From IMG/VR virus record IMGVR_UViG_2778261574_000001, positions 1 to 29,906 of that record: DNA of 29,906 nucleotides; one strand, 5' to 3'. Origin of the DNA: a virus. Lineage: Duplodnaviria; Heunggongvirae; Uroviricota; Caudoviricetes. The notes beneath the pieces were generated by a model. That model did not search any database. It had not been told where the DNA came from and worked only from the letters and a program-made list of their open reading frames with translations. The translations under genes and the position numbers were made by a program. Every line of letters begins with the position of its first letter. Position 1 is the stretch's first letter. This document shows, piece after piece, positions 2,556 to 16,929 of this stretch.

Positions 2556-2901
2556 TCTCTGCTCCTGTTGATACGGAAAGGGACACAGGCACACCGTTAT
2601 TCCGCCGCCCGGTCAGCTCCACCACCATTGAACCGTCAAAATTGCTGTTGATGGTGATGGAATCCAGCGTCAACCGTGGCTCCCAGCGACTCAGCGCCAC
2701 ATACACTGCCGACATGACCTGCAGGCGTAATGCCGGATTTTGTGGCTGATCTATCAGTGCCGACAGCAGGGAACCATATTCCCGGCGGGCAATACGGCTA
2801 CCCTGCGGTGTCAGCAGAATGTCCCGCACCGACTGGCGCAGATGATCAATATCAGTAATGACTTTGCCGCTGGTATTGTTCATCCCGCTATAAAGCGTCA
2901 T
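2542..2901 (-). CDS. W: Baseplate assembly protein W (gp25-like wedge protein)
   Basis: 119-aa ORF, ATG at 2899-2901 overlapping the V stop (ATGA); position V-W-J as in P2. Confidence 0.85.
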   Translation of the reverse strand: MTLYSGMNNTSGKVITDIDHLRQSVRDILLTPQGSRIARREYGSLLSALIDQPQNPALRLQVMSAVYVALSRWEPRLTLDSITINSNFDGSMVVELTGRRNNGVPVSLSVSTGAENGSD

Positions 2902-3476
2902 ACCGGGCCTCCGGTTGTATCGCCGCCTTTCAGGACGCCAGTATGCTGATGCGCATCAACCACGATCCCGTTAGAACTCATCGCTCCGCCGCCCTGGGTA
3001 ACGCCACCATTGATCACCACTTCGCTGTTAATGCGCGTGCGGTCAGCCTCCAGTACAAACTCACTGGTTTTCATGGTGATGTTGTCAGCAGCCTCAATGA
3101 CCATTGATTTGATGCCCCTAACATACCAGCGCCCGGTGGCGGGTTCGTATTCAAACCAGCCACCGTCAGGATGTTCTGTCACGCAGGCGTCCGCCGACGT
3201 CGACGGTGGTGCGAACTGATTCGAATAGACAGCGGGCAGCGCAAAGGCGGTTTCCAGATTGCCGCCCAGACTCAGCAGCACCACCTGCTCACCTTCCGAT
3301 GGTCGCCACCATGTACGGGCATTCCCGGCACGCAGCGTCAGCCAGCTGATCCAGTTGGTTTCAAGCTCGCCCGTTTTCACCCGGCAAAGCCAGTTTTCCC
3401 TGTCCACTTCGGTGACTACCCCTGTGCGGATCAGGTTGGTGATAAGGCGCATGATTTCGGTTAATTGTGCGTTCAT
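2898..3476 (-). CDS. V: Baseplate spike/assembly protein V
   Basis: 192 aa, MNAQLTEIMRLITNLIRTGVVTEVDRENWLCRVKTGE...; recognisable P2 gpV-type N-terminal OB-fold region; ATG at 3474-3476. Confidence 0.9.
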   Translation of the reverse strand: MNAQLTEIMRLITNLIRTGVVTEVDRENWLCRVKTGELETNWISWLTLRAGNARTWWRPSEGEQVVLLSLGGNLETAFALPAVYSNQFAPPSTSADACVTEHPDGGWFEYEPATGRWYVRGIKSMVIEAADNITMKTSEFVLEADRTRINSEVVINGGVTQGGGAMSSNGIVVDAHQHTGVLKGGDTTGGPV

Positions 3477-12301: not shown

Positions 12302-12336
12302 CATACTCATAACATCAATAACCGACCAACTCTCAC

Positions 12337-12372
12337 AACGCCTCAGCAGCATTCTGCGGGGCGTTTCTTTTT
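12337..12372 (+). terminator. Putative rho-independent terminator downstream of Q
   Basis: GC-rich stem (aacgcc...ggcgtt) followed by tttcttttt, read directly. Confidence 0.4.
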
Positions 12373-12384
12373 GCCCTGACATCT

Positions 12385-12394
12385 CCCCCCCCCC
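12385..12394. repeat. Homopolymeric C10 tract between Q and the cos-like site
   Basis: atctCCCCCCCCCCtcc read directly from the sequence. Confidence 0.9.
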
Positions 12395-12464
12395 TCCACT
12401 AAATGAGGCCGCCAGCGGGCCAGAGGCTGTGCCGGATTTTGGCCATTTTACCCCGTTGCGCGCG

Positions 12465-12483
12465 CTCGTATCCCCGCCACGCC
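12465..12483 (-). other. Putative cos site (cohesive-end sequence)
   Basis: Minus strand reads GGCGTGGCGGGGATACGAG. The first 13 nt match the 19-nt cohesive end of coliphage 186 as I recall it (GGCGTGGCGGGGAAAGCAT), and the location next to Q is where P2/186 cos lies. Recalled from memory, not verified. Confidence 0.35.
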
Positions 12484-12600
12484 TGCCCGCTTTATGTAGT
12501 AGTTTTCATGCAGGTGCATGATCTACGCGAAAGCCCGCCAATTCTGGCGGTCCCTAGCAAAAACGATCCTCAAACGATCATGCGATCTCATGCAGCATAG

Positions 12601-13443
12601 TCATGCACGATCATTTGACTCAGCATCTGCTGCACGCTTGCTGCGCGAAGATGCACTTTTACTATCAATCTTTCGACAGTTCTTTCTATCCCTGGCTTCA
12701 TTTTCTTTAAATTTGTTATATGTCTCAGTATCAAAAAACGAAATTGTTTCAACCTCATCTTTTGGTATGAGCACACGGAAATCTTCGATATTAAGCCGAG
12801 ACATTCCACTTATCACACCACTATCAAGATAATGTTGGTGATAGTTAGTCGTGATACTAATCGTTAGATCATCTTTATCCCGATATCCGCTTAACATCGG
12901 GAGAAGTTCAAGGTGCTCTGAAAGCCCGTTTTCTAACGCCGGACAAGTAACAAGACCAACATAGATTTTGCGAGACGACAGAGTTGCTATGATCGGAAAC
13001 TGTCTTGCGGACGCTTCCATGAGTAATGATTCGAAAGCGTTATTACCTACAGCTTTAGCTAAGGCATCCCAGCGACGATCTCCACGTGATGTGCGTAACT
13101 TATTTCCAAAACCTGAAATCGCAGCGAGGACAATTGAAATCATAACCCATGCTATCTGTTTGATTTCATTTATTCTTTGAAGTTTGTCTTTCGATGAAGA
13201 CAACATGCCATTAAAACTGTCAGGTGTTAGATTCAAGGCATTAGCCAGCCAACGAAACCCTCCGCTGACGTTCAAAATAAAGGTGAAAAAACCGCCAAGG
13301 AGAAAAAAAACGATACCCCAGGCAGCCACAAAAAAATAAGCGTCCCAGCCGTTGGAACGCTTATATCGGTATCTTGTTGAAAGTGATAGGTTTACATAAA
13401 TAAAACCACTAACCAAAATCACTGCTAAAAGTAATGTTGCCAT
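12601..13443 (-). CDS. Hypothetical membrane protein: three N-terminal TM helices plus a ~170-aa soluble C-terminal domain; cargo gene in the P2 old/tin hotspot
   Basis: 280 aa. Predicted TM helices: ATLLLAVILVSGFIYVNL, AYFFVAAWGIVFFLLGGFFTFILNV, IAWVMISIVLAAISGF. ATG at 13441-13443 overlaps the upstream gene stop (TAATG). Region is visibly AT-rich relative to the phage backbone (by eye). No family recognised. Confidence 0.7.
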   Translation of the reverse strand: MATLLLAVILVSGFIYVNLSLSTRYRYKRSNGWDAYFFVAAWGIVFFLLGGFFTFILNVSGGFRWLANALNLTPDSFNGMLSSSKDKLQRINEIKQIAWVMISIVLAAISGFGNKLRTSRGDRRWDALAKAVGNNAFESLLMEASARQFPIIATLSSRKIYVGLVTCPALENGLSEHLELLPMLSGYRDKDDLTISITTNYHQHYLDSGVISGMSRLNIEDFRVLIPKDEVETISFFDTETYNKFKENEARDRKNCRKIDSKSASSRSKRAADAESNDRA

Positions 13444-13658
13444 TATCTGGTTCTATTAGTTTTCTCTTTTACAGTGCTCGTTTTGATGCCTTCAAGCTTA
13501 TCCATCTGTGCCTTGATGGCATCCATTGCTCTTTTGTTAGACAAGTCTACGGACACAAAACCATCTTTACTAAGATTGAGTTTGTCCTGGTTCTCTTTAA
13601 GAACCCTTGCCAGACGTTCAACTGGGTTACCCAGGCTAAATGCGGCGATGCTTGACAT
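13443..13658 (-). CDS. Hypothetical small protein (71 aa), first gene of the two-gene cargo cassette
   Basis: ATG at 13656-13658 preceded by a strong SD (AAGGGGGAG, 4-nt spacer); charged, probably helical; translationally coupled to the downstream membrane protein. Confidence 0.65.
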   Translation of the reverse strand: MSSIAAFSLGNPVERLARVLKENQDKLNLSKDGFVSVDLSNKRAMDAIKAQMDKLEGIKTSTVKEKTNRTR

Positions 13659-13928
13659 AACTCCCCCTTTTCACATGGCGCGGAAGTCTACACTCCGACG
13701 CCTACAACCTCAACAGATTATCTTTAAAATTTAGACAACAATATCATCTGTTGATTGCGTTACTTAAACTTAAGTTCAATGCGCTCGATCATGCAAGCTG
13801 TTTCTTAAGAACTGTTAATTTCCTGGCATATATAGTGGTTAAGGTAACAAATTGACACTAACGCCTCGCATAGCTCGTTGTTCAACCTTGCTGACGCCAG
13901 AAGCAAGTTCAGACGCCAGCAACGTTTC

Positions 13929-14162
13929 TTAATGCAGCCAGCTGTCGTCTTCCCACACCTTCTGCATAATTTTCATCACTTGTTTTCTTTCTTCGTCCAG
14001 CTGCAATCCGGTCAGTTCCACACCGTTAGAGCTACCTTTGCGGATACGAATTACCGTTTTGGGATACAGAGGACGCAGATTGCGGTAAAGCTCGGATTCA
14101 AGGGCGTCCAGGGTAGACTGGCTAATCTTCTGCTCTTTATCGATCATTATTTCAATGCGCAT
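13929..14162 (-). CDS. DinI-family protein (186 Tum C-terminal-domain-like)
   Basis: 77 aa, MRIEIMIDKEQKISQSTLDALESELYRNLRPLYPKTVIRIRKGSSNGVELTGLQLDEERKQVMKIMQKVWEDDSWLH; co-linear with E. coli DinI (MRIEV...WESADDW). Confidence 0.85.
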   Translation of the reverse strand: MRIEIMIDKEQKISQSTLDALESELYRNLRPLYPKTVIRIRKGSSNGVELTGLQLDEERKQVMKIMQKVWEDDSWLH

Positions 14163-14173
14163 AAAAAGTCACC

Positions 14174-14362
14174 TCAACTGATGACATCCATTGAGCGGTT
14201 GTATTCGTGGGTTCTGATTTTTGCCATGAGTTCATCTGTTAGTTCAGAAACCCACTGCAAAGCCAGCCCCTTCTCTTCATCACTACACTCACTAGCCGCT
14301 ACAAGCTTAAGAAAAAAATCAATGCGCTGGAGCTTCAAAGACTCCAAAAAATAGTCCTGCAT
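14174..14362 (-). CDS. Small hypothetical protein upstream of the DinI-like gene (possible N-terminal part of a Tum-like antirepressor)
   Basis: 62 aa; ATG at 14360-14362 with a strong SD (AGGAGG); lies directly downstream of the LexA box and promoter. Confidence 0.55.
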   Translation of the reverse strand: MQDYFLESLKLQRIDFFLKLVAASECSDEEKGLALQWVSELTDELMAKIRTHEYNRSMDVIS

Positions 14363-14403
14363 CTTTCCTCCTATGACACCAAAGCAATACTGTAAATATA
14401 ACC

Positions 14404-14421
14404 ACTGTTTATATTTACAGT
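14404..14421 (-). promoter_or_regulatory. LexA (SOS) box overlapping a sigma70-like promoter for the 62-aa/DinI-like operon
   Basis: aCTGTttatatttACAGt = CTGT-N8-ACAG with AT-rich spacer, about 17/20 match to the LexA consensus TACTGTATATATATACAGTA; minus-strand TTTACA and TATACT hexamers flank it. Confidence 0.6.
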
Positions 14422-14514
14422 ATATAATAATCTTACTGATGTAAAACGTTTTTTTATGTTCATCAGCCTGATATGCCTGGTATTATTAAGAGCACGAATT
14501 GTTAACCCGCGTAA

Positions 14515-16929
14515 TTAATACAGGTTTCGCCACTTATCATCTTCCTGCAAACGCTGGTTCCGATAGAAGATACGCAGGCCTGCTCCTGACGGAATACTGC
14601 CGCCGCGAAGGAGTAAATCGACCTCTTTCTCGCTACCATCAAATCCTCTGGACTTCAGCTCATAGACGAGCTGCTGTCGCTGATGGTCTGTAATTCGCTG
14701 TTTGTAGTCTTTACGCCGTTTCGGTTTAACCAGGCGTAACCTTGCTGCCAGTTCCCGGCGCTCTTTTTTGCTCATACTGTGCAGGTAATCGTGCAACTGC
14801 TTGTCATCCATGCGGGTAATGTCCGTTCTGGTGCCCCCATCAGCTGATTTATCTTTCTCCTGTTGGTTCAAATTTTCAGCAAGGGGACAGTTATTGCCAC
14901 GAGTCCAAGGGGCGCAAGCGCCCTGGTCGGCTGCCGCCTCCTGAACGTCAACGGCCTTACGAACCATTTTCCACTTCACGGCATGAGTGCAGATCTTGCC
15001 CTCTGCAATGGGTGACCAGATGCCATAAATACGAATACCGTGATCGCCATAGGCGGTCGGCTCTTCGTTAATTTCATAAGCTGTTCTGATAAGGTGATAT
15101 TTGCGGGGAACCAGCACGCCGCCCTGCTTCATGATGTAGGTGGCAAAACAGCCAGCATCAGCAGCAGCCAGAATGGCATCAAGACGCGGGTTATCCAGTA
15201 CCGGCGCACCTGCTTTTTTGTCACCCTGTTGCCTTGCCGCCTGACCAGCCAGCAAGCGAAGTTCACGATAAGCCTGACGCCCCGGAATACCAAAGAAGCG
15301 GAATTGCTGAACACGATGCAGAGACGCCCAGGCATTCACGTATTCAGCGTTATCACGCAGAGATTTACCCGTTTCCTTGCTGATCTCGCCAGCCAGACCA
15401 CGACCGTCAATGTTCTTACTGATATATTTCGCGATGTAGCTTGTCGGCGTTCCTTTGCGCGGGTTAATCAACTCAGACTTAAAGCGCGGCCCAGTGTTAT
15501 TGCCCAGCTCCTCGCGGTCTTCACGGATGGCAAACTTACGCAGTAATGCAGTAATGGCACGGCGGTCTTTTTTGCGCATGAAACACAACAGGTGCCAGTG
15601 AACTGTGCCGTCATGATGCGGCTCAGCCACCCGCACGCCATACCAGCGCAACCCGGCTTTGTGCATCGCCTTACGAAATGCAGCAAACATGCCGACCAGA
15701 TAATCGCTGCTTTGTCTTACCGTCGCATTTGTCCAGGTTGGGTTTGGTCTGCCGTTATTGAGCGTGGAATGGAAACGTGACGGACAGGTAATGGTGTAGA
15801 AAACGGCGCAGTCACCGCGCATTTCCGCGATAAGCTCCAGACCTTTAACACAGGCCATCATCTCATTGCGGCGGTGCGCCGGGTTGCTGCTGCTGGCGTT
15901 TACCACGTCTTCCATATCCAGCGTGTCGCCCTCTTCGTTCACCAGTTCATGAGAACGGAAAAACTCCAGTGACTTGCGGCGCTGCTCACGTTTATGCATC
16001 ACGGCTTCATAGCTGACATAGGGAGATGCTTTTTTGCTGACCAGGCAGACAGCACGCAACTGCTCTTCCCGCCATTCGCAACGCATTTTCCATAATTTCC
16101 GGTACCACCAGTCGGCGCACAACATACGCGCCAGCGAACCCGGAATGAGTTCATAGGGCACGGGTTTACGGCGGTTTCTTTTCCGACGGAGTTGCTCAAA
16201 CGCAGGCGGGATGACATCCAGACGCAGGGTTTCCGCTGCCACCTTTTCCCATGTCTTGCGGATTTCTTCTGGCTTAACGTCATCGGTGGCATACAAATCA
16301 CCACAAGCTGCATCAAGGCACATGCTCATATGCGCAGCGACAAGGGTAGACAGGCGTTTCACCTGATCCTGACTCATTTCAGGCAGAATCAGCAGGCCGT
16401 CCAGCCCTACATGGCTTGCCATAAAACGAAAAGATGCAGATAGCTGGCTGTCGCGTACATGCTCCAGTCGTTCCAGACATGGCTTAATCGTCTCACGTAA
16501 ATAGCGGGAATAAGCCTTTGGCCTGCCCAGGCTGCTGAAGTATTCAATACGTTGCATCAGCGGCTTGCTGATATGGGAGGGCTGGGCGCTGACGTCTGCC
16601 AGAATGACCATGTCCGGGTTAAAACGCTGCTGCTCATGCGCCAACTTTGCCCGGCTAATGAGCTTATCCTGCTCTATTTCGCGTTGGACAGGATCACGGG
16701 ATTCATTAAAGAAATAACGCTCCCAGACCTGATCACTCAGTGCCTCGCGGCGCAGTTGTTCCTGCTCGTTATCGGCAGCGTACAGAGTGATCAGGTTTGA
16801 AAGCGCAGAAACCGGCGCAACTTCCGCCGGGTCCAGATAAGGGTTAATGGCCTTTTTCGGGCTGTTCCATGAGAACGATGCGGCAGCCTCGTTAAAGCCG
16901 CAGCAGTTGCTCATATCGGCATGGCTCAT
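14515..16929 (-). CDS. A: Replication initiation protein A (rolling-circle nickase, P2 gpA family)
   Basis: 804 aa, [37 protein letters not shown]...; P2 gene A family, of which P2 A is about 761 aa; ATG at 16927-16929. Confidence 0.95.

Follow-up and report, generated by a model that had tools for sequence, protein, structure and literature searches.

The stretch of viral DNA analysed here (the window) covers 29,906 nucleotides (nt), positions 1 to 29,906 of the Caudoviricetes record IMGVR_UViG_2778261574_000001 in IMG/VR, and carries a self-contained, mobile two-gene cassette. The cassette is a 'moron', exchangeable cargo located next to cos in a 186/P2-like prophage, at its right end. Both genes lie on the minus strand. 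The small gene (13443..13658) encodes a soluble partner protein of 71 residues (WP_000094764.1, phrog_9843), and the large gene (12601..13443) encodes a membrane protein of 280 residues (WP_021556032.1, phrog_3630). The two open reading frames (ORFs) are joined by a TAATG stop/start overlap at 13441..13445, where they share one base. We tentatively favor the reading that the cassette provides defence through a membrane effector of the abortive type, acting in conflicts with phages or other mobile elements. This functional claim is a hypothesis, and we regard the pair as a good but unproven anti-phage candidate.

A Shine-Dalgarno (SD) sequence, AAGGGGGAG, is located 5' of the small gene at 13661-13669. 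No purine-rich SD sequence is found within 15 nt of the start of the large gene (..CTAATAGAACCAGATAATG), and since no SD can be recognised there, translational coupling is probably needed for its expression. The initial annotation, made from the window alone, had placed the pair at these positions with the TAATG overlap, a strong SD before the first gene and coupled translation, and all four points agree with our reading. It had also described the cassette as rich in adenine and thymine (AT), with a content of guanine and cytosine (GC) of 35-40%. The AT-richness is real, as the GC fraction is 0.41 in the cassette versus 0.549 in the P and Q genes and 0.532 in gpA, but the estimate was slightly low, and the AT-rich block extends past the cassette through a DinI-like gene and a 62-residue gene to position 14514 (GC fraction 0.418). 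Composition alone therefore cannot delimit the acquired DNA.

Separate acquisition is shown directly by comparison with Escherichia phage 500465-1, relative to which the window contains a clean insertion. In blastn alignments, window positions 12447-12608 and 13858-14600 correspond to positions 2501-2660 and 2668-3409 of this phage. The flanks of the cassette are therefore 7 bp apart in the phage and 1,249 bp apart in the window. The mobile unit is the inserted segment at 12609..13857, which comprises both genes and ~200 bp of their own upstream DNA. The host element is a 186-like member of the P2 group, with the pair located between cos and gpA. A near-identical RefSeq prophage is present in E. 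coli CP8-3_Sichuan (99.5% identity over the test region). Its gene order is integrase, CI, CII, Fil, DUF3850, Dam methylase, gpA, the 62-residue gene, the DinI-like gene and the pair, followed on the opposite strand by portal Q and terminase P, and then by capsid, lysis and tail genes. The segment adjoining the cassette (12447..12608) is conserved among P2-like phages and contains, on the minus strand at ~12466-12486, the sequence GGCGTGGCGGGG, which we take to be the cos core from its resemblance, judged by eye, to the 186/P2 cos sequence. Because this cos core is read in the adjoining segment, the cassette probably occupies the right end of the phage genome, on the old/tin side in P2.

The right end is a known hotspot, in which P2 itself carries old and tin (PMC9122126). 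The locus is variable. The cos-flank segment is matched in ~1,274 of 5,426 complete E. coli genomes and in 60 phage records, and the cassette is carried by 52 of those ~1,274 genomes. A position between Q/cos and gpA, in the P2 old/tin hotspot, with variable content and a separate origin of the cassette had all been proposed in the initial annotation. The gene order in the window and in the RefSeq prophage, the published description of the hotspot, the count of cassette carriers among genomes with the cos flank together with Table S5A of Rousset 2022 (PMC9122126), and the 1,249-bp insertion bear out these proposals in turn.

The strongest new result is that the two genes are a co-inherited unit, an ancient operon. 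We examined 80 loci from species-representative genomes of Enterobacterales, Vibrionales, Alteromonadales, Pseudomonadales, Pasteurellales, Betaproteobacteria, Caulobacterales, Sphingomonadales and Acidobacteria. A homologous small ORF on the same strand abuts the start of the large gene in 78 of them, and the two exceptions are truncated matches. Most junctions are abutting or overlapping, with spacings from -13 to +15 nt, and the small proteins of these loci are homologous and align to one pattern. That the genes form a unit, as initially suspected, is thus supported more strongly than the window alone could have indicated. Both are real genes under purifying selection: compared with the Klebsiella-phage and Serratia copies, the large gene has a ratio of nonsynonymous to synonymous substitution rates (dN/dS) of 0.03-0.04, and the small gene one of 0.18-0.22. 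In the same genome pairs (loci L002 and L026), synonymous sites of the large gene are saturated (divergence ~2.1-2.4), whereas those of the small gene have diverged by only ~0.46-0.49. The cassette may therefore have recombined internally, or its halves may have had very different histories.

The family is also far larger than the initial annotation had recognised; it had identified a real cassette but missed its great breadth. A profile search of 1.84 billion representatives with the large protein matched 2,911 clusters (defined at 50% identity) at E<=1e-3, of which 2,027 remained at E<=1e-10. Nearly all matches are 240-300 residues long and align end-to-end, and each of the exact window proteins is found on at least 1,000 contigs. 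Source names within the family are either 'hypothetical' or artefacts. In the 71-residue family, the wrong names 'multidrug ABC transporter ATPase' and 'YobD' are widespread, and a homologue of the large protein (the UniRef entry of P0019) is labelled 'HrcA'. We rejected the names 'HrcA', 'ABC transporter ATPase' and 'YobD' as annotation artefacts with no sequence support.

The pair is found in many kinds of mobile elements. It is located at P2-like right ends in the window, in a Klebsiella phage and in Salmonella phages SEN4/SEN5, and the copy in SEN5 has the same right-end position with only 48% identity. In lambdoid elements, one copy lies in the nin region, where it adjoins a hok-like gene, and another separates tail genes K and I/J. 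A siphophage copy precedes the tape-measure gene, and a further copy stands at the edge of a Shewanella P2-like prophage. Outside phages, the carriers include IncC conjugative plasmids, a V. cholerae integrase/TraN island and a relaxase island of Pantoea, in which a DUF4011/DUF3320 helicase gene, AAA_13 and TIR flank the pair; the pair is also found at one locus without phage genes. Among phage records, it occurs only in temperate phages. In Pectobacterium chromosomes (L011-L013, 4372-5819), a DinI-like gene and genes for 65- and 272-residue proteins have housekeeping genes on both sides and no further phage genes in their vicinity, and this orphan block appears to be left over from a P2-like right end.

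We surveyed the three nearest called ORFs on each side of 44 diverse loci, which gave 256 proteins under crude ORF calling. Pfam matches among these neighbours include the mobile-element hallmarks gpA, terminase, portal, integrases and transposases. PADLOC matches at E<=1e-10 include PDC-S24, AbiLi+AbiLii, AriA, SoFic, MADS mad2/mad3, HEC-01A, PtuA, DpdE, DrmD, SspH, PD-Lambda-2_B, PD-T4-6 and two cyclases of the cyclic-oligonucleotide-based anti-phage signalling system (CBASS) with NucC. Defence genes account for roughly 5-6% of the neighbours versus a background of ~1.5% of genes quoted in the literature (PMC13434031), a rough comparison with no matched control. We consider this enrichment supportive, not decisive.

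In the 280-residue protein, Kyte-Doolittle analysis shows three hydrophobic segments centred at residues ~12, ~48 and ~103, and the AlphaFold2 model, built with 28 homologues (mean predicted local distance difference test (pLDDT) score 77.5), contains transmembrane helices at residues 2-19, 33-60 and 87-119. The loops after the first and third helices are basic (RYRYKRS and KLRTSRGDRR), and the positive-inside rule therefore predicts that the protein is oriented N-out, C-in, so that its C-terminal domain lies in the cytoplasm. Beyond the transmembrane helices, the model contains two short helices, a bent beta-sheet (strands within residues 151-236) and a C-terminal helix of low confidence. In a Foldseek search against the PDB, nearly all of the top 50 matches are Sm/LSm chains, with a probability of 1.0 and target-normalised template-modelling (TM) scores up to 0.75, and the modelled domain has the N-terminal helix and five strongly bent antiparallel strands that define the Sm fold. 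The protein is therefore predicted to consist of a three-transmembrane anchor, a cytoplasmic Sm-like beta-barrel (~136-236) and a variable, charged C-terminal tail. The initial annotation had noted three N-terminal transmembrane helices and a soluble C-terminal domain, which agrees with both the hydropathy analysis and the model, and had missed the Sm-like fold of the domain.

Membership in the Sm superfamily is a prediction at the level of fold only. No Sm1/Sm2 or Hfq (YKHAI) motifs were found, neither the protein nor 51 diverse family members had a Pfam LSM/Hfq match, and a profile of the protein searched against PDB sequences returned nothing at E<=10. The family has its own conserved positions, with Y161, G163, P182, S185, G186, R188 and Y201 invariant and K159, Y187 and F237 nearly invariant. 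They make up the invariant barrel motifs SRKxYVG and P.LSGYRDKD, which are not the classical Sm1/Sm2 motifs. The LSGYRDKD motif is located at the beta3-beta4 turn, away from the canonical RNA-binding loops of Sm proteins.

Other assignments of the large protein were considered. A relative of MscS, which combines three transmembrane helices with Sm-like beta and alpha/beta domains, was rejected since there is neither a Pfam MS_channel match nor a structural match to its third transmembrane helix and beta domain; the Foldseek match lists contain no MscS or Cap15-type proteins. A class I holin, which would be ~100 residues long and part of a lysis cassette, was rejected because the protein has 280 residues and its gene is not in the lysis cassette; an HP1-family holin, a lysozyme and LysB/C are encoded separately by the prophage. 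Searches of the BFVD viral structure library gave only weak matches to small uncharacterised proteins. A remote relationship of the family to DUF6338 (PF19865) is possible, as the lone distant member P0244 scored 21.9 bits against a cut-off of 26.5, over the transmembrane half only.

The membrane location and the distribution of the pair also bring to mind superinfection exclusion (Sie), in which an inner-membrane protein would block the entry of phage or conjugative DNA without killing the cell and the small protein would aid its assembly or regulation. P22 SieA, T4 Imm and HK97 gp15 act in this manner, blocking entry at the cytoplasmic membrane while the cell survives. We consider this an unlikely explanation, although several observations fit it. 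The large protein is predicted to reside in the inner membrane and, among phage records, is restricted to temperate phages; the moron is found in tail-gene clusters, including a site directly upstream of a tape-measure gene, and HK97 gp15 has been reported at such tail-gene sites. Conjugative plasmids and islands resembling integrative and conjugative elements (ICEs), which have entry-exclusion functions of their own, carry the pair as well. The periplasmic loop 2 is, together with the C-terminal tail, the part of the family most variable in length and sequence, as expected of a surface facing diverse invaders. Some Shewanella-type members (P0285, P0287, P0288 and P0292) have a much longer, low-complexity loop 2 and tryptophan-rich tails (WWAKWWA). 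However, the most conserved parts of the family, loop 1 and the Sm-like barrel, are cytoplasmic, which points to an intracellular ligand or partner. In addition, there is no similarity to annotated Sie families in PHROG or Pfam (SieA, SieB, Imm, gp15-type), an obligatory soluble cytoplasmic partner is atypical of known Sie proteins, and some chromosomal copies have no mobile element nearby.

The 71-residue protein contains no hydrophobic segment in Kyte-Doolittle analysis. Its AlphaFold2 model is poor (pLDDT 64) and shows a helix, a hairpin and a helix. The family pattern is similar, with a helix, a beta-hairpin ('KDGFVSVD' / 'GRGTIxID') containing a nearly invariant glycine, and an amphipathic helix. 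No match was found in Pfam, PADLOC, NCBIfam or the PDB, where the profile search gave noise, and Pfam searches with 44 members of the small-protein family were negative or sub-threshold. No recognisable DNA-binding (antitoxin) fold or family was found for the small protein.

This last result bears on whether the pair is an addiction module of the toxin-antitoxin (TA) type that stabilises the prophage, ICE or plasmid, with the membrane protein as toxin and the labile small protein as antitoxin. The layout is that of a type II TA module: the operon is bicistronic with a small first gene, the ORFs are adjacent or overlapping (TAATG in the window, 78/80 loci), the second gene has no SD and an inverted repeat lies upstream. 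Its presence in many kinds of mobile elements including IncC plasmids, the orphan copy kept in Pectobacterium chromosomes after phage loss, and the hok-like gene adjoining the pair in one lambdoid prophage would also fit. We nevertheless consider addiction improbable as the role of the pair. Besides the lack of an antitoxin fold in the small protein, the large protein greatly exceeds known membrane toxins in size and complexity and has a conserved domain of a ligand-binding type. Since defence is the role of many TA modules, this explanation overlaps with defence by a membrane effector and does not exclude it.

The upstream region of the cassette (13659..13857, minus strand) is carried by the cassette itself and is absent from phage 500465-1. 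In addition to the SD sequence, it contains a 15-nt inverted repeat with arms at 13710-13724 and 13740-13754. The core of the repeat, CAACAG..CTGTTG, is retained in the Klebsiella P2-like phage. Upstream regions of cassettes from unrelated contexts gave no alignment, so that conservation of the repeat is supported only for the P2-like lineage. A possible extended -10 element, TGATATTGT, lies at 13738-13746 within one repeat arm, and the region may represent the cassette's own promoter and operator. A scan for consensus promoters and terminators found no sigma-70 promoter on the cassette strand.

Further upstream is an SOS unit on the same strand. A perfect LexA box, TACTGTAAATATAAACAGT, is located at 14405-14420 and is the sole CTGT-N8-ACAG match in the window. 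It is followed, ~40 nt downstream, by the 62-residue gene (14362..14174) and then by the DinI-like gene (14162..13929; 77 residues, DinI Pfam E 6.6e-23), and the two genes match phrog_189 and phrog_698. This layout matches the SOS-inducible p95-tum antirepressor unit of phage 186, although the DinI-like protein aligns with no more than the C-terminal half of the PHROG profile of Tum type. We rejected the LexA box as a part of the cassette, as it belongs to the tum-like unit, which is present in phages without the cassette. The cassette is directly downstream of this unit and could be transcribed by read-through upon SOS induction.

Such read-through would suit a non-conflict accessory role, in which a membrane-tethered Sm-like protein alters host or phage physiology, for example by handling RNA or small molecules at the membrane, in envelope stress, or in an SOS or lytic function. 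We consider this role quite unlikely. In its favor, Sm/Hfq-fold proteins are classically RNA chaperones, the lambdoid copies are in regions (nin and tail) with transcription in the lytic cycle, numerous members stand among housekeeping genes, and the hotspot carries non-defence cargo too. On the other hand, the cassette is patchy and highly mobile (52/5,426 E. coli genomes) and has been recaptured at accessory hotspots, which is a better fit to conflict genes. Furthermore, no Sm1/Sm2 or Hfq sequence motifs were detected, and the cassette is dispensable for the phage, as close relatives lack it.

Database searches did not connect the pair to a characterised system. Neither protein has a Pfam, NCBIfam or PADLOC match at E<=1, save PADLOC matches with E 0.14 at best. 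The PADLOC-DB version used (v2.0.0, 2023) includes the Rst_*, PD-* and PDC candidates. All PHROG matches are of unknown function: 3630 for the large protein (E 9e-99), 9843 for the small protein (E 1.4e-36), and 23864. PADLOC searches with the 51 diverse large-protein members gave one weak match to a '2TM effector' (E 7e-4), and Pfam searches with the same members were negative or sub-threshold. OLD-family proteins including P2 Old were ruled out by the Pfam, NCBIfam and PADLOC results at E<=1. P2 Tin was ruled out as well, since only PHROGs of unknown function were matched, PADLOC was negative, and Tin is soluble whereas the large protein has three transmembrane helices. These results from Pfam, NCBIfam, PADLOC and PHROG are in line with the initial annotation, which had recognised no known defence motif and had treated the pair as different from old/tin and other characterised systems.

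The annotation had further called the pair undescribed. This is correct insofar as no characterisation was found in the literature covered, which did not include Brenes & Laub 2025 and the final Mordret 2026, but the pair had already been catalogued, in PHROGs 3630/9843 and in Table S5A of Rousset 2022, where WP_000094764 and WP_021556032 are listed as 'hypothetical + hypothetical' cargo of the P2 hotspot (PMC9122126). In that table, SieB is sometimes a separate neighbour of the pair (PMC9122126). The accessions and sequences of the pair are not in the table of tested systems of the same study (PMC9122126).

The hypothesis of defence by a membrane effector is supported by the hotspot, the mobility of the cassette, its restriction to temperate phages, the defence-rich neighbourhoods, the TA-like layout and the membrane-effector-like architecture. 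The P2 hotspot holds old/tin and many validated systems (PMC9122126). A prior for a defensive role comes from experiments on hotspot cargo, as six of eight randomly chosen loci of unknown role from the P4 hotspot were defensive (PMC13586616), and three of eight P2 loci were protective (PMC9122126).

Several points weigh against this hypothesis. The same P2 figure means that only a minority of the tested loci protected against Rousset's panel, and hotspot cargo includes partition systems and a cytolethal distending toxin (PMC9122126). The case for the defence or abortive-infection role proposed in the initial annotation is contextual. No homology to known defence proteins was found with PADLOC, for the window proteins or the 51 members, and exact-string matching did not find the accessions or sequence prefixes in the supplementary data of Vassallo 2022, of DefensePredictor 2026 or of the Mordret 2025 preprint. 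The enrichment among neighbours, besides being rough and without a matched control, is confounded by the fact that mobile elements are defence-rich, and many family members stand among housekeeping genes such as those for two-component systems and transporters. As the promoter scan was negative and a LexA-controlled unit precedes the cassette, its expression in a lysogen before induction is only putative. Finally, the location of LSGYRDKD off the RNA-binding loops leaves nucleic-acid sensing unsupported.

If the cassette is a defence system, it may work as follows. The 280-residue protein would span the inner membrane, and its Sm-like barrel would face the cytoplasm. It would probably oligomerise like other Sm-fold proteins, gathering many transmembrane helices. 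The co-translated 71-residue partner could be an antitoxin-like inhibitor that holds the large protein inactive, or an adaptor that senses infection. Upon infection, the restraint would be lost or a ligand would bind the barrel, and the transmembrane bundle would then compromise the membrane (abortive infection) or block DNA entry. We infer oligomerisation or ring formation, the roles of the partner, the trigger and the anti-phage phenotype. A bolder version, which we consider speculative and unlikely to hold in full, is that mobile elements share a widespread immune system with no name as yet, comprising thousands of clusters from Proteobacteria to Acidobacteria, of which the pair would be the founding example. 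In such a system, a membrane-tethered Sm-like ring would sense phage nucleic acid or protein in the cytoplasm and gate its own transmembrane pore, with the co-translated 60-90-residue partner as a safety catch. To our knowledge, an Sm-fold protein has not been described as a membrane effector.

Some further observations concern the surroundings of the cassette. The hotspot is two-sided, as relatives carry other cargo between portal Q and the cos flank, including a SEFIR protein in Klebsiella phage ST15-OXA48phi14.1 (2505-4144) and a TIR protein in phage 500465-1 (1136-2438). In the window, the interval between Q and the cos flank is 145 bp (12302-12446) and is matched by 3 of the 52 cassette-bearing E. 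coli genomes. Just 3' of the large-gene stop, positions 12588-12597 (TCATGCAGC) resemble the 3' end of the DinI-like gene at 13929-13939 (TTAATGCAGCC), and in phage 500465-1 the DinI gene terminates inside the cos-flank segment. The resemblance between TCATGCAGC and TTAATGCAGCC may be a recombination scar of the cassette insertion. The window from ~22,300 to its end is probably host chromosome, judging only by correspondence with NZ_CP053736.1, in which the integrase end of the prophage abuts rcdA, ybjJ, ybjI, mdfA, deoR and dacC.

If the pair does exclude phages, it would represent a new defence family without homology to the content of current detection tools, spanning prophages, islands and IncC resistance plasmids of E. 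coli, Klebsiella, Salmonella, Vibrio and Pseudomonas. A defensive role would also reduce the share of P2 hotspots without an identifiable defence gene, which is 19% of P2 elements (PMC13586616). If the pair is not defensive, it would still be a very common mobile-element pair that carries misleading database names. The cassette is small (1.25 kb) and genetically tractable, and is a good and cheap experimental target.

Among known systems, the pair resembles P2 old/tin in its address at the right end between gpA and cos, in being swappable, in a GC content below that of the phage core and presumably in its benefit to the lysogen. However, P2 Old (an ABC-ATPase/Toprim nuclease) and the soluble Tin have no sequence or domain relation to a three-transmembrane Sm-like protein with a 71-residue partner. 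Type II TA modules share the gene order, the overlap, the size of the first gene, the upstream inverted repeat and the association with mobile elements, but here the putative toxin is a 280-residue integral membrane protein with a sensor-like domain, and the putative antitoxin has no known DNA-binding fold. Lambda RexAB, gp30/gp31 of mycobacteriophage Butters, and the 'Hydrolase + 3TM' and '2TM-1TM-TIR' systems of Rousset are likewise prophage-borne combinations of a soluble and a multi-pass membrane protein in variable hotspots. The pair differs from these two-gene systems in having no homology to them (PADLOC) and in its soluble partner, which is tiny, encoded first and joined by a stop/start overlap. 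From Sm, LSm and Hfq proteins, and from the related WYL ligand-sensing domain, the large protein is distinguished by its three-transmembrane anchor, an insertion between beta4 and beta5, and motifs of its own at other positions; ring formation and RNA binding are only conjectural here.

A transmembrane anchor with a small cytoplasmic beta-barrel follows the logic of membrane effectors such as CBASS Cap15, which reportedly consists of two transmembrane helices and a beta-barrel (Duncan-Lowey et al. 2021). The modelled large protein is similar to Cap15 in having N-terminal transmembrane helices followed by a compact cytoplasmic beta-barrel, which suggests membrane disruption driven by oligomerisation. 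It differs from Cap15 in that the operon contains no cyclase or other signal-making enzyme, the barrel is Sm-like and not of the Cap15 fold, and a 71-residue partner is present. If the prediction is true, the combination of an Sm-like barrel, a tether of three transmembrane helices and a very small obligatory partner would represent a new design for a membrane effector.

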